From NCBI GenBank assembly GCA_964541455.1, contig CAZIPS010000003.1, positions 2,663-66,662 of the forward strand: 64,000 bases of DNA. The letters run 5' to 3'. Numbering within the stretch: the first letter of the stretch is position 1; every line of letters starts with the position of its first letter. The DNA is from an uncultured Candidatus Saccharibacteria bacterium. Lineage in GTDB: Bacteria > Patescibacteriota > Minisyncoccia > Phycocordibacterales > JAKFXT01. This document shows, piece by piece, positions 2,797 through 63,747 of the stretch. A program made the translations under genes and the position numbers. Below the pieces are notes generated by a model. That model was given only the letters and a program-made list of their open reading frames with translations. It searched no databases and had not been told where the DNA came from.

Positions 2797-3405
2797 ATGA
2801 GTGTTATAAAACACAAAGAACAGCGCGTAGGAATGTTTATAGACGCGCAGAACCTTTATCACAGCGCCAAGAATCTCTATCATGGCAAAGTAAACTTTGG
2901 CAATGTTGTGAAGGACGCTATTGCTGGCCGCTCTGTTATCCGCGTAGTAGCGTATGTTATTACTACTGAGTCAGGTGAAGAGAAAACTTTTTTCGAAGCA
3001 CTTGAGAAACTTGGTATCGAAACTAAAACCAAGGACCTCCAGATTTTCTGGGGCGGTGCTAAAAAAGCTGATTGGGATGTAGGACTTGCGGTAGATGCTA
3101 TCCGTCTTGCACCGAAGCTTGATACGGTTATTTTAGCAACTGGAGACGGAGACTTCTGTCCACTTGTTGAATATTTGAAACATAATGAGGGCTGTCAGGT
3201 AGAAGTAGTTTCATTCGGTAAATCTACTTCAAGCAAACTCAAAGAAGTGGCTGATGACTTCTTTGACCTTTCAGAAAACCCCCGCAAGTATCTTATAGGC
3301 GGCAACACGCGTAGTGGGGGGAGTCGTCGCGGCTACCGCACTCCGGAGCAAATCCTTGCAGAAGCAGAAGAGAAAGGCGATATTGAAGAAATAACTGAAG
3401 CGTAG
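2797..3405 (+). CDS. NYN-domain (LabA-like, PIN-fold) putative ribonuclease
   Basis: 202 aa with NYN hallmarks: FIDAQNLYHS, VVAYV, the LATGDGDF acidic motif and VVSFG. Confidence 0.7.
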   Translation: MSVIKHKEQRVGMFIDAQNLYHSAKNLYHGKVNFGNVVKDAIAGRSVIRVVAYVITTESGEEKTFFEALEKLGIETKTKDLQIFWGGAKKADWDVGLAVDAIRLAPKLDTVILATGDGDFCPLVEYLKHNEGCQVEVVSFGKSTSSKLKEVADDFFDLSENPRKYLIGGNTRSGGSRRGYRTPEQILAEAEEKGDIEEITEA

Positions 3406-3418
3406 ATCATAAAAGTAA

Positions 3419-3450
3419 AACCCCTCCGCCACAAAGTGGCGGAGGGGTTT
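3419..3450 (+). terminator. Rho-independent terminator downstream of the NYN gene
   Basis: Inverted repeat CCCCTCCGCC ... GGCGGAGGGG followed by a T-run. Confidence 0.7.
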
Positions 3451-3523
3451 TACTTTTAACCTATTTTATGGCAGAATATAAAAAGTCAAATTTTGTTCCG
3501 GCCCTAAAAGGAGGGGTCACACA

Positions 3524-3958
3524 ATGGAATTGCAGCCAATAAACCAGTTTGCCTTTGCCCGAGCCGTGGCAGAGCTTTCTGGTGAAGGACCAGAGGTGGG
3601 GAGAAGCGGACTCTACACAACCTTCCCACAAGTCCCCGGGAAACCGGAGCTCCACTGCCTCACCACCGCCATGAAGTGGATTGGCGGACCGCGGCAGTCG
3701 GGCGAAGCCCAGCTCGTCGTCGTCGACAAGCTCCGCGAGCAGCCGGTTGCGGCGCTCATGTGGACCATGACTACATCAGGACCCACACGAGAGTTCGTCG
3801 TCGACCTCGGATTCGGAGTTTCCTCCGACCCGAAGTGGAACCTCTTCCTTGGAAAGCTCAAGGAAATCGCCGAGCAAATCGGCGAGCCGCCCGAACGTTT
3901 CCGGCAAGAAGTCGGCGAGATCCTGTCCATCATCCACATGCTCGGTGTGGCGGCCTAA
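3524..3958 (+). CDS. Hypothetical protein, GC-rich cassette A (144 aa, cytoplasmic, no recognisable domain)
   Basis: ORF of about 62% GC against a background near 42%. A strong SD (AAAGGAGGGG) lies 7 nt upstream of the ATG and the cassette has its own terminator. The antisense ORFs in this region are GC artefacts. Confidence 0.6.
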   Translation: MELQPINQFAFARAVAELSGEGPEVGRSGLYTTFPQVPGKPELHCLTTAMKWIGGPRQSGEAQLVVVDKLREQPVAALMWTMTTSGPTREFVVDLGFGVSSDPKWNLFLGKLKEIAEQIGEPPERFRQEVGEILSIIHMLGVAA

Positions 3959-3979
3959 CCGCCCCATCGAGCAAAACCC

Positions 3980-4006
3980 CGCCCGTCAAGGGCGGTTTTT
4001 TTATGT
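3980..4006 (+). terminator. Intrinsic terminator of cassette A
   Basis: CCGCCCGTCAAGGGCGG followed by TTTTTTT. Confidence 0.75.
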
Positions 4007-4081
4007 TACTTTTATTTTCGCCCTATTTAAGGTAAGAATAGTGAAGCTTATTTGTTCCTAGGCCCCACGAGGTGGCCATAC

Positions 4082-4519
4082 ATGGATCCCGCTGAACTTA
4101 CCCGAATCACAGTTCGTCTTTTCAATCGACTCGTCTTCAAGTATGAAGGGACCCTTCCCAAGAAAAGTAGTGGGGACGTTGTTTCAACCCTTGTTTTAAC
4201 TGGGGAGAACCTCACCCTTAGCATCCACCCCTGGCGGCGCACATCAAGACCAGAAAAAATGGTGTATTTCTCGATTTCCTCGACAAGATGCCGCGTCCCC
4301 GTACTTTCGATCTGGCTTGATGACGAGGCTACCACCCGTATTTCGGTCGTTTCCGGCCCAACTGCCCTTAAGGGGAAGGAGTTTTCATTCCTTCTTACCC
4401 TCCAAAGGGAGGCTCTCGAAGTCTTTGACGATCACCCGTTCCTCTTCCCCGAAAACGACTTTGGGAAGTGGATACACCTCTGTGGGCACACCACCCTCCT
4501 TCTGATGCGAGGGAATTAA
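4082..4519 (+). CDS. Hypothetical protein, GC-rich cassette B (about 146 aa from ATG 4082; the ORF track starts at an upstream TTG)
   Basis: About 50% GC, with SD GAGGTGG 6 nt upstream of ATG 4082 and its own terminator. No recognisable domain. Confidence 0.5.
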   Translation: MDPAELTRITVRLFNRLVFKYEGTLPKKSSGDVVSTLVLTGENLTLSIHPWRRTSRPEKMVYFSISSTRCRVPVLSIWLDDEATTRISVVSGPTALKGKEFSFLLTLQREALEVFDDHPFLFPENDFGKWIHLCGHTTLLLMRGN

Positions 4520-4540
4520 GGTGAACCTATTCACTTAGCA

Positions 4541-4566
4541 TCACTGCCACGGCGCCAGAAAGACGG
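4541..4566 (+). terminator. Intrinsic terminator of cassette B
   Basis: GGCGCC-AGAAAGAC-GGCGCC followed by GTTTTTT. Confidence 0.7.
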
Positions 4567-4726
4567 CGCCGTTTTTTATTACAATAACGTACTCATAAAC
4601 AACTACCTTAAATTTTGCTACAGTAAGGACATTATTTATTAAAAAGGTCTTTCTATATGTAGATTTCAAAATAAGCTAACAGTAAGTGCTTATTTTTAAG
4701 TCTGACTTAGGAAGATCGTAAAACAT

Positions 4727-6871
4727 ATGCAGAAAAAAATATATAGTTGCGAGTGGGCAGGTAAAACATTGAGTGCTGAGTTTACTGATCTCGCTGATCA
4801 AACAAATGGGTCTGTCATGATCCGTTATGGAGCTACGGTTGTACTTGGTACCGTGGTCATGAGCAAACATGATAAAGAAGGGCTTGAGTATTTCCCCTTG
4901 ACTGTTGACTATGATGAAAAGTTTTATGCTTCAGGGCAAATATTAGGAAGCCAATATGTTCGCCGCGAAGGACGCCCCACCGAAGAAGCGATTCTTCGCG
5001 GTCGTATTGTTGATCGCACTATTCGTCCACTATTCCCCTCGCATATTCGCCGCGATGTGCATGTGGTTATCACAACGCTTGCTATCGACCAAGATGATCC
5101 TGATGTACTTGCAGTACTTGCTGCCTCCCTCTCACTTGCCATCTCTAATATCCCTTGGAATGGGCCGGTTGGAGCAGTGCGCATTAGCCGTAAAAGTGGA
5201 TCAACTGATTTTGAAATCAATCCCACCTTCAGCAATCGCCCCGATGATGAGATGGATATTGAAATGATCTGTTGCGGCAAAGAAGGCAATATCAATATGA
5301 TTGAAGTAGGAGCTAAGGAGATATCTGAAGCTGATATCGCTAAAGCATTCGATCTTGCAGCAACACATTTAAAAGTAATAGAGGATTTCCAACACAAAAT
5401 CATTGCCGAGCTTGGAAAAACAAAGCAAGAGTTTGTTAAAGAAGTACTTGGTAAAGAGGAGATTGCTTATTTTAATGAAATCATTACTCCAAAAATCGAT
5501 GCAGCCGTATTTTCTGGTCCTGGAGGAAAAGAAATCAATGCACTAAAAGATGAGTGGCTCACACTGTTTGCTGAAAAATTTCCAGAAGGGAAGAGGGTGC
5601 TTGCAGAAGAACACTATGAGGAAATTATTAACGAGGTTATTCATAAGGAAGCCATTCTTAATCAGCGCCGTGCTGATGGGCGAGGACTCGATGAAGTGCG
5701 CCCACTTTTTGCACAAGCGGGCGGTATTTCAGAAGCGCTCCATGGTACTGGTATTTTTTACCGTGGTGGAACACACATTTTCTCAGCGCTTACACTTGGA
5801 GGACCGGAAGACGCAATGACGCTCGACACTCTTATTGGCGTTGAGAAAAAACGTCACTTTATGCTCCACTACAACTTCCCACCTTTTTCTTCAGGTGAGA
5901 CCGGACGCATGGGGGGCACCAATCGTCGTATGATTGGACATGGTGCACTTGCTGAAAAAGCACTTAGAGCAGTCGTTCCTGAACGAGAAGTATTTCCCTA
6001 CACTATCCGTATTGTTTCTGAAAGCATGGCTTCAAATGGATCAACCTCGATGGGGTCAGTGTGTGCGGGAACATTAGCGCTCATGGATGGGGGAGTGCCT
6101 ATTACCGCCCCTGTTGCTGGTATTGCTTCAGGACTTATGATGGAAACGCCGGAGCATTACGCCCTCCTCACTGATATCCAAGGCCCAGAAGATCATCATG
6201 GGGACATGGATTTCAAAGTAGCGGGCACCACTAAAGGCGTTACTGCTATTCAAATGGATGTAAAAGTGGGCGGGATTCCAATTCCCATTCTTGTAGAAGC
6301 ACTCGAGAAAGCCCGTCTTGCACGACTCCATATTTTAAAGACTATGCTTGAAGCACTCCCTGAAGCACGCAAAGACATTTCACCAAGGGCACCAAAAATT
6401 GTAGTGCTAAAAATAAACAAAGAGCAGATTGGACTTGTTATTGGCAGCGGAGGAAAAACAATCAACGAGATCAGAGAAAAGACAGGAACTGAAATTACTA
6501 TTGAGGATGATGGAGTGGTGTATATCACCGGTAAAAACGGGGGGGCAGAAAAAGCCAAAGCGATTATTGAGGCTATGACCCATGAATACAGAGCAGGAGA
6601 AAAAGTGATGGGTACCATAACCAAAATAGTTGATTTTGGTGCTTTTGTTAAGTTTGGCTTTAACAACGAAGGCCTTGTGCACATTTCAGAAATTGCCCCT
6701 TTTCGCATAGAAGTGATAGGTAATCACTTAAAAGAGGGTATGGAGGTACCGCTTGTTATAAAAGGAACCGATGAGCGTGGGAAAATTTCCCTCTCCATAA
6801 AACAAGCTGATGCAACATTCGCAGAAAAGGTTGGCTTTGCCCCCAAGGCAACACCAGAGCAAAAGAATTAG
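4727..6871 (+). CDS. pnp: Polynucleotide phosphorylase (two RNase PH domains plus KH and S1)
   Basis: 714 aa with N-terminal PNPase motifs (FETGKLA-like core, GRPTEEAILRGRIVDRTIRPLFP), a C-terminal KH motif (GLVIGSGGKTINEI) and an S1 domain. Confidence 0.95.
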   Translation: MQKKIYSCEWAGKTLSAEFTDLADQTNGSVMIRYGATVVLGTVVMSKHDKEGLEYFPLTVDYDEKFYASGQILGSQYVRREGRPTEEAILRGRIVDRTIRPLFPSHIRRDVHVVITTLAIDQDDPDVLAVLAASLSLAISNIPWNGPVGAVRISRKSGSTDFEINPTFSNRPDDEMDIEMICCGKEGNINMIEVGAKEISEADIAKAFDLAATHLKVIEDFQHKIIAELGKTKQEFVKEVLGKEEIAYFNEIITPKIDAAVFSGPGGKEINALKDEWLTLFAEKFPEGKRVLAEEHYEEIINEVIHKEAILNQRRADGRGLDEVRPLFAQAGGISEALHGTGIFYRGGTHIFSALTLGGPEDAMTLDTLIGVEKKRHFMLHYNFPPFSSGETGRMGGTNRRMIGHGALAEKALRAVVPEREVFPYTIRIVSESMASNGSTSMGSVCAGTLALMDGGVPITAPVAGIASGLMMETPEHYALLTDIQGPEDHHGDMDFKVAGTTKGVTAIQMDVKVGGIPIPILVEALEKARLARLHILKTMLEALPEARKDISPRAPKIVVLKINKEQIGLVIGSGGKTINEIREKTGTEITIEDDGVVYITGKNGGAEKAKAIIEAMTHEYRAGEKVMGTITKIVDFGAFVKFGFNNEGLVHISEIAPFRIEVIGNHLKEGMEVPLVIKGTDERGKISLSIKQADATFAEKVGFAPKATPEQKN

Positions 6872-17448: not shown

Positions 17449-17485
17449 CCATCCTTAGTGAGGTTAATTATCCACCATAGAATCA

Positions 17486-17514
17486 TTGACTTTTTAAGTC
17501 TTTTGCGGTTTAAT
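17486..17514 (+). promoter_or_regulatory. Near-consensus sigma70 promoter of cassette C (TTGACT-17-TTTAAT)
   Basis: -35 TTGACT at 17486-17491, 17-nt spacer, -10 TTTAAT at 17509-17514. SD AGGAGG lies 6 nt before ATG 17548. Confidence 0.6.
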
Positions 17515-17547
17515 TTACGTAAACTAACCACACCTAGGAGGTGTGCC

Positions 17548-18138
17548 ATGAAGTTCTTCAGAATCACACTGTTCGCGGCTTTCGGCCTCGGCCTGACGTA
17601 TACTTCGTCGTTCGGGCAACAGCTCGCAGCTCTGGCCCCCACAAGCGAAGCGGTGAAGTGCCAGGCCAAACTCTCCCTCGAGGAAACCCCCGAAACAAAG
17701 GTGGCGCTCGAGGAAAACGAGTACCCAGAAACCGCGACCCCCGTTCTCGCATACGCCCTGCGGCAAATCGCTTGCCTTGAAGGCGAGTCCGAGGTCCAGA
17801 TCTCCCTCAAGATCCTCTCTATCGACTGGGACTGGACACCGGGAGGAGCGTTTGTTTCGGTCTTCACCGGCATCTTCGGTGGACCAAGCAACTCACTGGG
17901 GTCCATCAAGGGGAAGGCGGCAGTTGAAATAACTGTTCGCACCAAGGGAAAGGTGGTCACGGCACAAGGCGCAGCAGAGGAGAAAACCCTCTACAAGCCC
18001 GAACCGAAAATGATCATCGACGATCGCCCAGCACTCCCCATCGGCGGCGGATGGTCACGGCCGAACAACAAGGTTGGGGGAATGCTCCTCAATCAAGCAA
18101 TCGGCCAGGCCCTCAAGAAGGCCTTCGAGCAACTGTAG
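17548..18138 (+). CDS. Hypothetical secreted protein, GC-rich cassette C (196 aa, N-terminal signal peptide)
   Basis: About 58% GC. Signal peptide MKFFRITLFAAFGLGLTYTSSFGQQ, strong SD and its own terminator. The fold family is not recognisable. The ORF track starts at an upstream GTG at 17458. Confidence 0.6.
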   Translation: MKFFRITLFAAFGLGLTYTSSFGQQLAALAPTSEAVKCQAKLSLEETPETKVALEENEYPETATPVLAYALRQIACLEGESEVQISLKILSIDWDWTPGGAFVSVFTGIFGGPSNSLGSIKGKAAVEITVRTKGKVVTAQGAAEEKTLYKPEPKMIIDDRPALPIGGGWSRPNNKVGGMLLNQAIGQALKKAFEQL

Positions 18139-18152
18139 AGGCGATGCCACTA

Positions 18153-18180
18153 CAGCCCCCGGGTTCGCCCGGGGGTTTTA
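18153..18180 (+). terminator. Intrinsic terminator of cassette C
   Basis: CCCCCGGG-TTCG-CCCGGGGG followed by TTTT. Confidence 0.8.
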
Positions 18181-18186
18181 CATTAT

Positions 18187-35507: not shown

Positions 35508-36602
35508 ATGAAATTTGAATGTAATAAAGAAAAACTACAAGAGTTAGTAGTTAAAATAGAAAAAACAACAAGTCGGAACGCAACACTTCCCATTCTTAGT
35601 TGTATTCTTTTGGTGGTTAAAGATAAAACACTTACACTTAAAGCCACTAATTTAGAAGTAGGAAGTGAGCTTATACTCCCTGTAAGGGTGGAAAAAGAAG
35701 GAGTGGTTGCAGTTTCTGGTTCTCTTTTTTCTCAAATCCTCTCCTCCTTAAAAACAAATAAAAACCTTACTATAGAAGAGAAGGATGGGGGGGTAGAAAT
35801 AAAAACAATAGAAACAACTGTTTTTTTAAAAACAAATCCTTATGAAGAGTTTCCGCTTATCCCTCGTATTGAGGCAGATAAAAAAATAGTTATAAAAGTT
35901 AAAGATATTATTCTTGGGATAAAAAGTGTGGTGTATAGTGCTTCTCTTTCTACTATTAAACCAGAACTTGGAAGCATCTATATTTACCAAGAAACAAATA
36001 CACTTATTTTTGTTGCAACAGACTCTTTTAGATTGGCAGAGAAAAAAATTGTTGTTAAAAATATAGAACAATTTCCTTCAATACTTATTCCCTACAAAAA
36101 TGCCTTAGAAATTGTAAGGCTTTTTGAAGGTGTTGATGAAGAGGTGGAGTTTTTAATCACTAAAAATCAAATTAGTCTCGAACATCAACATATATTTATT
36201 ACCTCAAGAGTTGTTGATGGAGTCTTTCCTGATTACACACAAATAATACCAAAAGAAAATATCGCCACAGCGTTAGTGTTAAAACAAGATATTATTAACG
36301 GTATTAAAAGTCTCTCAGTGTTTTCTGATAAGTTTAATCAAATTATTTTTACTCTTACAAAAGAGGGAATAGTGCTTGAAACGAAAAATAACGATATTGG
36401 AGAAGGAAAAACAGTAGTGGTGGGGAAAGTAACAGGAGAGATGGTTAAAGTTAAGTTTAATCAAAAATATATCACTGATGCTTTTTCTACACTAACCGAT
36501 GAATCAATCCTCCTTTCTTTTTCTGAAGAAAGAAAACCACTTGTTATAGAAGGTGCTTCAAATAAGAGCTTTAAGTATCTTGTTATGCCAATGAATAACT
36601 AA
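35508..36602 (+). CDS. dnaN: DNA polymerase III beta sliding clamp
   Basis: 364 aa in a three-domain clamp architecture, conserved position after dnaA, and C-terminal motif LVMPM. Confidence 0.9.
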   Translation: MKFECNKEKLQELVVKIEKTTSRNATLPILSCILLVVKDKTLTLKATNLEVGSELILPVRVEKEGVVAVSGSLFSQILSSLKTNKNLTIEEKDGGVEIKTIETTVFLKTNPYEEFPLIPRIEADKKIVIKVKDIILGIKSVVYSASLSTIKPELGSIYIYQETNTLIFVATDSFRLAEKKIVVKNIEQFPSILIPYKNALEIVRLFEGVDEEVEFLITKNQISLEHQHIFITSRVVDGVFPDYTQIIPKENIATALVLKQDIINGIKSLSVFSDKFNQIIFTLTKEGIVLETKNNDIGEGKTVVVGKVTGEMVKVKFNQKYITDAFSTLTDESILLSFSEERKPLVIEGASNKSFKYLVMPMNN

Positions 36603-36604
36603 AC

Positions 36605-36859
36605 ATGTTTGAAATTAAAGATATTATTGCCAGGTTTTCTTTAAAAATTTCTCCAGAAAGAAAGGTTAATCTCGCATTAAAAGATTATTTTAAAGAAAAA
36701 AATATTCCTTATACTGGCGTTGCTCCAAAAATCTCACAACAAACAGTGTTTATCCATGGGGATAGTTATACAAAAATGTATATACAAACATATCAAAAAG
36801 AGATACTCGCACTTATACAAAAAGTACTGCCAGAAAGTAACATACAAACGATTAAATAA
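36605..36859 (+). CDS. Small protein downstream of dnaN, possibly DUF721/DciA-like
   Basis: 84 aa. Position and size are reminiscent of DUF721 proteins near dnaN. Sequence similarity cannot be verified here. Confidence 0.3.
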   Translation: MFEIKDIIARFSLKISPERKVNLALKDYFKEKNIPYTGVAPKISQQTVFIHGDSYTKMYIQTYQKEILALIQKVLPESNIQTIK

Positions 36860-45303: not shown

Positions 45304-45386
45304 TTCCCTTAAATCATAGCATGGGAGTGTCGTAAAAGAGGCCGAGGCAGAGCCATTTTTAGGGGATAAGGGAGAGAGGAGGAGGG

Positions 45387-45415
45387 TTGACTTTTAGCAA
45401 TTTTTCGTGTATAAT
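45387..45415 (+). promoter_or_regulatory. Perfect-consensus sigma70 promoter of cassette D (TTGACT-17-TATAAT)
   Basis: -35 TTGACT at 45387-45392, 17-nt spacer, -10 TATAAT at 45410-45415. SD AGGAGAAGG lies upstream of ATG 45470. Confidence 0.7.
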
Positions 45416-45469
45416 ATCAACCATCAAGCTTGGGAAGGGTCCCAGGCTCGCACATTACAGGAGAAGGTC

Positions 45470-45955
45470 ATGTATACTCGCTTTGCAGTTCCGGTGGTTC
45501 TCGTGCTCGTCGCCCTCTTCGGGGGTTGTGCGGGCATCAACTCGATAGACCCGCAAGTCTATCGTTACGGGGGCGGCTTTCAGTCCGATTTCGTCGTCAC
45601 AGCTCCGCCTTGTAAGCAATTGCAGGCGGAAGGTAAGTCGTGGCAGGCAATTCAATGTCAAAGTGGCGTCAACGCGCAGGCGCGCGACAATGCGACGACG
45701 GTTTTCCTAGAGGAGGCCCGCCAGGCAGAGCTCATCTACTGGCAGGCCTATAACTCGGTCCGTGTTGGGCCGGAAGGGTTCGGTGTCAGTCAGTTCAGCT
45801 GCCGCCCGTTTCGTATCTCCCTCGTTAAGTTCAGTCGTTGCAACGACGGCCTGCGCGAGGGGGCGCAAAACGCCATCCGCAATGCCTACTGGCAGAGCGA
45901 GCGCGACATGCAAGCCGCGCGCGAGGTGGGGAGAACGCACACTAATAGCCGATGA
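45470..45955 (+). CDS. Hypothetical lipoprotein, GC-rich cassette D (161 aa; signal peptide with lipobox-like LFGGC)
   Basis: About 59% GC with its own promoter, SD and terminator. N-terminal MYTRFAVPVVLVLVALFGGCAG and four further Cys residues. No recognisable domain. The ORF track starts at 45407. Confidence 0.6.
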   Translation: MYTRFAVPVVLVLVALFGGCAGINSIDPQVYRYGGGFQSDFVVTAPPCKQLQAEGKSWQAIQCQSGVNAQARDNATTVFLEEARQAELIYWQAYNSVRVGPEGFGVSQFSCRPFRISLVKFSRCNDGLREGAQNAIRNAYWQSERDMQAAREVGRTHTNSR

Positions 45956-45983
45956 GGCTTGGACCTTCTCCTTCCAGTTTCAA

Positions 45984-63206: not shown

Positions 63207-63281
63207 CTCCCCGTAGTTCAATGGATAGAACAGGAGACTTCTAAGCTTCTGATCGTGGTTCGATTCCACGCGGGGGGACCA
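63207..63281 (+). tRNA. tRNA-Arg (anticodon UCU), CCA encoded
   Basis: Acceptor CUCCCCG/CGGGGGG, D-arm GUUC-AAUGGAUA-GAAC, anticodon loop CUUCUAA, T-loop GGUUCGAUUCC, 3' ACCA. Confidence 0.8.
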
Positions 63282-63282
63282 T

Positions 63283-63320
63283 ACAAGAAAAAACAGTGCC
63301 TGCGCACTGTTTTTTCTTGT
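63283..63320. terminator. Palindromic terminator hairpin after tRNA-Arg(UCU); same element as 51071-51098
   Basis: ACAAGAAAAAACAGTGC-CTGC-GCACTGTTTTTTCTTGT. Confidence 0.75.
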
Positions 63321-63546
63321 ATGGTCCGGCCGCAGCTATATTTTGCTAGCGAGCAAAATTGTGCGAGGCGGGGTCGCGAAAAAAGCGAGTGGCGACGAGC
63401 TTTTATTCGTGACACAGAGAAGTAAAGAAACAAAGCGTCCACGCGGAACATTGCAAGCGACGGCGCGCAATGTATCTGTGACACAGAGTGGGGGGGTTCA
63501 CAGAGATAGTAAAAAACCGCCCGAAGGCGGTCGGTGAGTGGAGGGG

Positions 63547-63747
63547 TTATTCTCGAAATTCCCTCCACCAGATGATGGTCCAGGCGAGGCTTCCTATGAC
63601 GAAAGCCCCGGCGCTTATTGAAAGGAACCATACAAGTTCAGCTCCTTTGGGGGCAAGGATGCTGCCTGCCAAAAGCCCCAGAAAAAGGGAAAGCACAATG
63701 GCCGAGACGTACGGGCCCCACGCTTCCCCACGAATTATGTGTCTCAT
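63547..63747 (-). CDS. Small two-TM membrane protein, GC-rich cassette E (66 aa from ATG; the ORF track extends to an upstream TTG at 63801)
   Basis: MRHIIRGEAWGPYVSAIVLSLFLGLLAGSILAPKGAELVWFLSISAGAFVIGSLAWTIIWWREFRE. SD GGAGGA 5 nt upstream, sigma70-like promoter and a terminator CCGCC-TTCG-GGCGG-TTTTTT after the stop. Confidence 0.55.
   Translation of the reverse strand: MRHIIRGEAWGPYVSAIVLSLFLGLLAGSILAPKGAELVWFLSISAGAFVIGSLAWTIIWWREFRE

Follow-up and report, generated by a model that had tools for sequence, protein, structure and literature searches.

Two GC-rich orphan genes of probable foreign origin in the variable NYN-pnp interval of an uncultured Paceibacteria lineage

The locus described here lies in a window of 64 kb (the whole stretch of DNA that was analysed, 64,000 nucleotides) from an uncultured member of the Paceibacteria (Parcubacteria, candidate phyla radiation). 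Five genes follow one another on the plus strand, namely rpsO, a NYN-domain gene, two GC-rich genes that are called A and B in the following, and pnp. The conserved flanks outside the insertion are rpsO, encoding ribosomal protein S15 (2425-2688; Pfam Ribosomal_S15 PF00312, E 3.8e-29), and pnp, encoding polynucleotide phosphorylase (4727-6871; two RNase_PH domains, a KH and an S1 domain, precomputed on an identical product). The gene for a NYN-domain (LabA-like) nuclease (2797-3405; Pfam PF01936, E 1.3e-33) is the native neighbour of rpsO. This order, confirmed from the ORFs and Pfam, is the one given in the original prediction, which had placed a NYN gene plus two GC-rich ORFs between rpsO and pnp. 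It is shared by 13 independent contigs from ENA, JGI and Logan assemblies that represent three strain types, and the coordinates of A and B are identical in the public gene calls of eight independent assemblies. Given the 13 independent contigs, an assembly chimera of the GC-rich segment is unlikely, and the locus is real and stable.

Gene A (3524-3958, plus strand) encodes a soluble, acidic protein of 144 aa (pI 5.2) and gene B (4082-4519, plus strand, ATG at 4082) a soluble, mildly basic protein of 145 aa (pI 8.7). The measured GC contents are 60% for A and 51% for B; the values given previously were 144 aa and 62% GC for A and “about 146 aa” and “50% GC” for B. The ribosome binding site (RBS) of A, GGAGGGG, is located at 3510-3516, 7 nt ahead of the ATG, and that of B, GAGGTGG, at 4069-4075, 6 nt ahead of the ATG. 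Intrinsic terminators on the plus strand follow both A (3979-4002; hairpin 3979-3995 with a 6-bp all-GC stem, then T7) and B (4549-4578; hairpin 4549-4572 with an 8-bp stem, then T6). A Shine-Dalgarno sequence and a hairpin terminator for each gene, as had been predicted, were thus both located in the sequence or by the terminator scan. The spacer between A and B measures 123 nt and contains the terminator together with a separate leader carrying the RBS for B. By this layout, A and B are single-gene units, each with its own RBS and its own intrinsic terminator. A further, palindromic terminator with a 20-bp stem and a T-run follows the NYN gene (3411-3457), formed by an inverted repeat with 23-nt arms that are 100% complementary. 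Since three intrinsic terminators lie between the NYN gene and pnp, co-transcription from rpsO through to pnp is unlikely at this locus.

The segments of about 110 nt before A and before B, each consisting of terminator plus leader, are copies of each other with about 70% identity, so that A is bracketed by direct repeats. Copy 1 (3413-3514, plus strand) comprises a terminator arm, with the NYN terminator as its 5′ part, and the leader of A with its RBS; copy 2 (3969-4075, plus strand) comprises the terminator after A and the leader of B, again with the RBS. Their local alignment reached a score of 23 versus 8.2 ± 1.4 for shuffled sequences (z 10.5; 0 of 2000 shuffles reached it). Searching the 64-kb window with nhmmer returned these two copies only, and neither the spacer between B and pnp nor the regions upstream of other GC-rich islands showed leader-like similarity (z 0.2-1.3). 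A promoter scan found none before A or B at its threshold, in agreement with the earlier statement that no convincing sigma70 promoter precedes them; this has to be qualified for A, where a candidate just below the threshold can be read from the sequence within copy 1 (TTTACT at 3449-3454, 17 nt, TGgCAGAAT at 3469-3477). In copy 2, before B, a 6-nt insertion shifts the -35-like element. Because the upstream regions are copies, A and B may be regulated together. We also considered a leader hairpin hiding the RBS and dropped it: RNAalifold gave 6 pairs with one covarying, the leaders folded with z -0.3 to 0.6 relative to shuffles, and the B leaders do not adopt the structure.

In E. coli and many other bacteria rpsO and pnp form an operon. 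The present locus resembles this arrangement in that both genes lie on the same strand, in the same order and a few kb apart, and differs from it in that the NYN gene adjoins rpsO in this clade and a variable stretch precedes pnp. The same interval was inspected in related genomes, as had been suggested with the original prediction, using NYN relatives with 64-82% amino-acid identity in 80 Paceibacteria/Patescibacteria genomes. The rpsO gene lies directly upstream of the NYN gene in 73 of 75 testable related loci. The pnp gene is found downstream of it in 32 of 52 loci and elsewhere in the other 20. The distance from NYN to pnp varies between 151 and 3762 nt, and the interval contains either other genes or nothing; its unrelated cargo includes TerC/DUF475, HTH regulators, a PIF1 helicase, LexA, a FabH-like gene and orphans, and 57 of the 66 gap ORFs are singletons. 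Genes A and B were detected at the orthologous site in none of the 80 related loci (tblastn at 1e-3; phmmer --max on gap ORFs, E > 0.3). The NYN gene is not part of the local insertion, and since rpsO followed by NYN is the normal order in relatives and the stretch from NYN to pnp is variable among them, the “split operon” largely characterises the clade as a whole. Of the earlier proposal that A and B were inserted and thereby split the operon, the insertion agrees with their absence from the 80 loci, whereas the split by a local event was overstated.

Both genes stand out by composition. GC at third codon positions (GC3) amounts to 0.71 in A and 0.57-0.58 in B, whereas the genes next to them have 0.36-0.41 and the median over the window is 0.39 (SD 0.08). 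The maximum of GC in 300-nt segments (0.61) exceeds the window mean of 0.43 by about 3.8 SD. Only A, B and two other genes are clear GC3 outliers among the approximately 64 ORFs of the window. A fifth ORF above a GC3 of 0.52 (63218-63631, GC3 0.53) is marginal. In frame, codon positions 1, 2 and 3 of A have GC contents of 0.66, 0.43 and 0.71, and this order of GC3 > GC1 > GC2 is typical of genes with an evolutionary history in a GC-rich genome. Compositional amelioration is a concept attributed to Lawrence and Ochman. Because GC3 lies far above that of the other window genes, composition, as the single line of evidence on this point, points to acquisition of A and B from a source of higher G+C. 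The two genes differ from each other by 9 points of GC overall and by 14 at third positions, and the GC3 values of 0.71 versus 0.57 suggest separate acquisitions. No donor lineage emerged, as no homologue was found outside the lineage, plasmids and viral contigs included, and no insertion sequence, integrase or tRNA is present at the borders of A and B.

Homology searches assigned neither product to a family, in line with the original prediction: there was no match in Pfam (E <= 1), NCBIfam, PADLOC, PHROGs or PDB sequences, and none beyond the own lineage in viral contigs, plasmids and metagenome contigs. For B, HMMER was run exhaustively against 1.84 billion representative proteins, which stand for about 15 billion predicted proteins, and returned the cluster of B only; weak similarities to VHH/Ig in the PDB (E 0.05-1.5) and to TIG in Pfam (E 0.14) were treated as chance. 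For A, a word-indexed method and pattern scans, less sensitive than the exhaustive run for B, retrieved, apart from A, no more than one allele that is 85% identical and has the same gene context; since the exhaustive HMMER scan covered B, distant relatives of A may exist. Both genes were found solely in one species-level lineage, always at one locus. A literature search on NYN, PNPase and Parcubacteria yielded nothing relevant. Structure modelling and a Foldseek comparison had been proposed as a check. Models built from two-sequence alignments reached a pLDDT of 39.7 for A and 29.4 for B and are unusable, and the comparison of the A model with the PDB (nothing at E <= 0.001, best TM-score 0.31) is uninformative and no evidence either way because the pLDDT of the model is below 40.

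Comparison of the strain types showed that A and B are genuine protein-coding genes under purifying selection. Relative to strain L001 the differences at codon positions 1, 2 and 3 number 17, 8 and 24 in A and 7, 5 and 28 in B. Versus the two other strain types, dN/dS is 0.26 for A (synonymous excess p = 5e-5) and 0.10 for B (p = 2e-10). The distance from RBS to ATG is kept in both allele types despite a 9-nt shift of the A start, and alternative ORFs on the minus strand are interrupted by stop codons in L001. Among the flanking genes, pnp has a dN/dS of 0.04 and the NYN gene shows 0 non-synonymous changes versus strain L002 and 2.5 versus L005 (dN/dS 0.03). A and B have dS values of 0.31-0.35, which exceed those of the flanking genes (0.04-0.16) by a factor of two to eight; older alleles that recombination has kept separate, or a higher mutation rate of GC-rich DNA, could account for this. 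Strain L005 carries a recombination tract with a length of about 340 nt (approximately 4005-4346) that replaced the spacer between A and B together with the first 60% of B and left A untouched.

These substitution patterns bear directly on the possibility that the GC-rich segment is non-coding, being either a structured RNA or a set of chance open frames. GC-rich DNA does give rise to long chance ORFs, several overlapping ORFs are present here, and the A region is more strongly folded than its dinucleotide-shuffled versions (z -3.6 on the plus strand and -3.9 on the minus strand). However, this folding excess is equal on both strands, no Rfam match was obtained even at E <= 10 except for terminator look-alikes, the L001 sequence on the structure of the window gives -120 kcal/mol compared to -118 ± 10 for random substitutions, and between strain types there are 0-1 compensatory pairs as opposed to 16-26 broken ones. 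A structured RNA was rejected on the grounds that it lacks an Rfam match, that both strands fold alike and that the predicted pairs are not kept between strains. Third-position substitutions, dN/dS below 1 and the conserved RBS geometry indicate translation, and we regard a non-coding segment as extremely improbable. The repeated leader raises the different possibility that A and B are tandem duplicates of one ancestral cassette of leader, ORF and terminator, the coding parts of which have diverged. This would account for the clear homology of the upstream 110 nt and for ORFs of near-equal length that both end in a hairpin terminator, and in the hhalign alignment the first 26 residues are in register (ELxxIxxxxFxRxV...G..P). 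As paralogues, however, the two proteins were negative by BLASTP (E 2.3), by hhalign (probability 0.2%) and in global and local alignments against shuffles (z -0.8 to 0.6). It is also implausible that non-coding DNA stayed approximately 70% identical when coding DNA under selection lost all signal, and the compositional gap between the two genes speaks against a common ancestor as well, making duplication very unlikely. An integron-like origin was likewise rejected. Like integron cassettes, which consist of a promoterless ORF and attC, A and B are compact tandem units of a single ORF with an imperfect inverted repeat at the end of each, and a tyrosine recombinase gene occurs in the neighbourhood. 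In contrast to 55-140-nt attC sites with R/L boxes, the inverted repeats found here are GC-rich stems followed by T-runs and therefore ordinary intrinsic terminators; the element that recurs is the leader ahead of each ORF; and the recombinase gene is not adjacent, with housekeeping genes in between. This only tyrosine recombinase (712-1629) is located 1.8 kb upstream of the NYN gene, with a GNAT gene and rpsO in between; it resembles XerC/D and shows no link to A and B.

The original prediction had proposed a two-gene module, for example a toxin/immunity or effector/chaperone pair; a toxin/antitoxin pair belongs to the same reading, in which the two partners would bind each other. Several properties would fit type II toxin/antitoxin or polymorphic-toxin effector/immunity pairs: A and B are small and of similar size, adjacent on the same strand, of foreign composition and without known family, one product is acidic and the other basic, the two are always found together, and the leader copies suggest shared regulation. 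The low-confidence model of A, with a helix, six strands and two helices, is loosely similar to small acidic binding proteins of the p32/Mam33 type, at Foldseek E > 1 only. In nearly all known toxin/antitoxin and effector/immunity pairs the two genes share a transcript and either overlap or lie a short distance apart. Here, on the other hand, a strong terminator within the 123-nt spacer separates A from B, so the layout is unlike that of toxin/immunity operons and the two genes would not be co-transcribed. Neither a one-operon layout nor a recognisable partner family was found; A and B match no toxin, antitoxin, immunity or defence profile, PADLOC, Pfam and NCBIfam included, and contain no DNA-binding or recognisable toxin domain. 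Their co-occurrence carries no information, since every occurrence is one locus in one species. The recombination tract of L005, which replaced most of B and left A alone, and the difference in GC3, which suggests separate acquisitions, argue against the module as well. At the sequence level we thus see no evidence for a toxin/immunity-type pair, and a module of interacting partners appears unlikely.

We therefore favour, with a probability of roughly 0.72, the reading that A and B are lineage-restricted protein-coding orphans derived from a source of higher G+C and lodged in a poorly conserved stretch between NYN and pnp, rather than locally born genes or RNA genes. They resemble horizontally acquired genomic islets of ORFan genes, the hallmark of which is an unusual base composition, in their atypical GC3, in the lack of a family, in being missing from the related genomes examined, and in their position between conserved housekeeping genes at a site whose content varies among relatives. 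They differ from such islets in that neither a donor nor a mobility gene, tRNA or short target-site duplication was found, the sole flanking repeat being the 110-nt terminator-plus-leader copy. The position next to rpsO, NYN and pnp would reflect a tolerant insertion site and not a shared function, and the products may be small cytoplasmic accessory proteins with a niche role (such as dealing with host or phage) outside RNA decay. The repeated leader may carry a shared promoter or operator, by which A and B would be switched on together yet as separate transcripts. The repeat itself probably arose when an A cassette recombined next to a resident B, or when a regulatory segment was copied. A more far-reaching scenario is that A and B, possibly with the two other GC-rich orphan cassettes in the window, are founders of an undescribed co-regulated two-protein system in a CPR episymbiont. 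Such a system could, for example, act in effector/immunity or against phage or host, with the 110-nt leader as control element, and would have been captured from an unsampled GC-rich partner; we consider this scenario, taken as a whole, quite unlikely.

The case of A and B exemplifies a common phenomenon, namely small foreign orphan genes that are lodged between housekeeping genes. Between the two genes of the textbook rpsO-pnp pair, Paceibacteria carry a conserved NYN nuclease gene, which is followed by an insertion-tolerant stretch. The locus adds two selected protein families (four if the other islands are counted) without relatives in the databases searched, exhaustively so for B only. The duplicated terminator-plus-leader segment provides a handle on co-regulation and on how cassettes insert, and an interaction between A and B, if true, would define a new two-component family. 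These families are candidates for a role in interactions with a host or with phages, in an organism about whose lifestyle little is understood.

Our analysis located two adjacent GC-rich small genes, A and B, between the gene of a NYN-domain nuclease and pnp. On the plus strand, rpsO (2425-2688) and the NYN gene (2797-3405), both assigned by ORF list and Pfam, are followed by ORF A (144 aa, 3524-3958), ORF B (145 aa, 4082-4519) and pnp (4727-6871); B is read from the ATG at 4082, and its listed ORF reaches further 5′ to a TTG at 4052. GC content is 60% in A and 51% in B, compared with a window mean of 43% (300-nt windows, SD 4.8%), and the 300-nt maximum of 0.61 lies within A. The original prediction described this locus accurately, with only small numerical differences. 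The ribosome-binding site and hairpin terminator that it gave to each gene are present at both, namely GGAGGGG with the ATG 7 nt further on for A, GAGGTGG with the ATG 6 nt further on for B, and, in the terminator scan, hairpins followed by T7 (3979-3995) and T6 (4549-4572), respectively. It had seen no convincing promoter for either gene, and our promoter scan likewise reported none upstream of A or B. The scan also detected a terminator 3′ of NYN (3411-3457, 20-bp stem and T-run). The latter (3410-3458) is a perfect palindrome with 23-nt arms and a 3-nt loop, flanked by an A-run and a T-run, and could terminate transcription bidirectionally. Just upstream of rpsO, the minus strand carries genes for a tyrosine recombinase (305 aa, Phage_integrase and SAM-like N-terminal domain, XerC/D-like) and a GNAT acetyltransferase (712-2099), for which we saw no link to the A/B cassettes.

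Thirteen independent contigs, taken from assemblies of ENA, JGI and Logan, share the order rpsO-NYN-A-B-pnp and represent three strain types: one is identical to the window, one is about 90% identical over the interval (L001-L004), and one is a mosaic (L005). Compared with L001, substitutions at codon positions 1/2/3 number 17/8/24 in A, 7/5/28 in B and 6/1/75 in pnp, with dN/dS values (Nei-Gojobori) of 0.26, 0.10 and 0.04; the synonymous excess is significant for A (p = 5e-5) and B (p = 2e-10), and A evolves faster than B. Minus-strand alternative ORFs over the A region are interrupted by stop codons in L001, and the start codon of A is shifted by 9 nt between strain types with the distance from ribosome-binding site to ATG kept. 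Together, these features show that A and B are real genes under purifying selection. GC at the three codon positions of A (0.66/0.43/0.71) is characteristic of coding sequence whose evolution took place in a GC-rich genome. Between strain types, dS is 0.31-0.35 in A and B versus 0.04-0.16 in rpsO, NYN, pnp and the next gene, that is, two to eight times the flanking values, which could reflect older alleles or a faster decay of GC-rich DNA. A structured RNA in the A region was also considered and rejected, since the folding excess over shuffles is equal on both strands (z -3.6 and -3.9) and pairs are not kept between strains: the 54 differences from L001 disrupt predicted pairs like random substitutions (-120 kcal/mol vs -118 ± 10), with 0-1 compensatory pairs. 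Rfam searches of 3350-4750 up to E ≤ 10 gave nothing except terminator look-alikes.

The source annotation names A and B "hypothetical protein" or not at all. Neither matched Pfam (E ≤ 1), NCBIfam, PHROGs, PADLOC, plasmids (tblastn) or viral contigs, and PDB sequences gave only chance-level Ig-like matches for B. In a database of 5.8 billion clusters A matched itself and one 85%-identical allele, and B its own cluster only. An exhaustive HMMER scan, performed for B only and covering 1.84 billion representatives, found no relatives beyond that cluster; for A none were found elsewhere, a metagenome pattern scan returning the same locus only. Both products are soluble, as originally described, and lack a hydrophobic segment (19-residue Kyte-Doolittle averages peak at ~0.95); their pI values are 5.2 (A) and 8.7 (B). 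AlphaFold2 on two-sequence alignments reached a pLDDT of 39.7 for A and 29.4 for B; the A model has a predicted order of one helix, six strands and two helices, and Foldseek found no match to it in the PDB below E = 1.

Third-position GC supports the earlier idea of an insertion at this locus and points to a foreign origin: among ~64 window ORFs (median GC3 0.39), A (0.71) and B (0.58) are two of four clear outliers. The other two, also single-gene units with own terminators, have canonical promoters (TTGACT-N17-TTTAAT or TATAAT). One cassette (17458-18186) is flanked by a UvrD/PcrA-type helicase gene on one side and rsmA/ksgA on the other, and encodes a 196-aa secreted protein (17548-18138, GC3 0.67) with an N-terminal signal peptide. 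Its TTGACT-N17-TTTAAT promoter lies at 17488-17516 and its terminator at ~18157-18180, and the gene has a ribosome-binding site; like A and B it is an orphan, with no relatives found outside the lineage. The other (45380-45960) encodes a predicted 161-aa lipoprotein (45470-45955, GC3 0.68, lipobox LFGGC) behind a near-perfect TTGACT-N17-TATAAT promoter at 45388-45416; the protein had no NCBIfam match and is confined to a small cluster within this lineage. All four genes are common to the sister strain type, and their acquisition therefore predates the strain split; no donor was identified. Two adjacent ORFs of 364 and 84 aa at 35508-36859 show a low GC3 (0.19-0.21 vs the median of 0.39) and may be an AT-rich acquired segment.

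Related genomes bear on the earlier view of a split rpsO-pnp operon. Using the NYN protein as query against species-representative genomes, we obtained 80 loci (64-82% identity), all from Paceibacteria/Patescibacteria assemblies, some under other labels. The conserved NYN (LabA-like) gene directly follows rpsO in 73 of the 75 loci with enough upstream sequence, and pnp lies within ~6 kb 3′ of it in 32 of the 52 with enough downstream sequence. These bacteria thus differ from the textbook rpsO-pnp pair, with NYN directly 3′ of rpsO and pnp often further downstream. The NYN-pnp gap measures between 151 and 3762 nt. Among the unrelated genes found there are those for a TerC/DUF475 membrane protein, a PIF1-type helicase, a FabH-like enzyme, LexA and HTH regulators, besides many orphans; BLASTP clustering left 57 of the 66 gap ORFs as singletons. 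The original prediction had proposed inspecting this interval in related genomes; neither relatives of A or B nor a comparable GC excess were found in any of the 80 loci. We conclude from this gene order and the variable, unrelated cargo that NYN between rpsO and pnp is ancestral to the clade, that the NYN-pnp stretch is evolutionarily plastic and that only the A/B cargo is species-specific. A and B do lie between rpsO and pnp, but the interruption by NYN is mostly clade-wide, and rpsO-NYN(-pnp) looks like a clade-wide RNA-metabolism gene cluster.

The NYN-A (3405-3526) and A-B (3959-4084) spacers are copies of each other over ~110 nt, comprising a terminator 5′ arm, a TTACTTTTA block, CCTATTT-A-GG-AGAATA, TTTGTTCC, GGCCC and the ribosome-binding site. 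Their local alignment scores 23 versus 8.2 ± 1.4 for shuffles (z 10.5; 0 of 2000 reach 23), and an nhmmer profile found just these two copies within the 64 kb; the B-pnp spacer and the upstream regions of the other islands are unrelated to it. The A and B proteins themselves show no detectable similarity (BLASTP E 2.3, hhalign probability 0.2%, shuffle z -0.8 to 0.6). The copy at A holds a candidate promoter (3449-3477: TTTACT, 17 nt, TGgCAGAAT), just below the scan threshold and read from the sequence; in the copy at B the -35-like element is displaced by a 6-nt insertion. A hairpin hiding the ribosome-binding site in the shared leader was proposed, then found unsupported. The repeat would be a shared regulatory segment, through which A and B are probably co-regulated, and a trace of cassette insertion; the terminator-plus-leader may have been either a site of recombination or copied.

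The original prediction suggested that A and B may be a functional pair, for example toxin/immunity or effector/chaperone. This is unproven and has no positive support, and it is opposed by the terminator between the two genes, the absence of a family signal for both, their unlike composition and their independent recombination. The mosaic L005 is of L001 type from rpsO through A, of window type at ~4005-4346 and then of L001 type again; this ~340-nt tract, which takes in the A-B spacer along with the initial 60% of B, shows that homologous recombination is active in this population and shuffles A and B alleles independently. Judged from sequence, the best-supported reading is a small islet of two orphan genes, horizontally acquired and each transcribed independently, at a tolerant intergenic site. 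That A and B lie close to rpsO, NYN and pnp is most likely explained by tolerance of insertions at this site, not by a function in RNA decay, and the A/B locus would be a further case of acquired orphan genes, an already known phenomenon.
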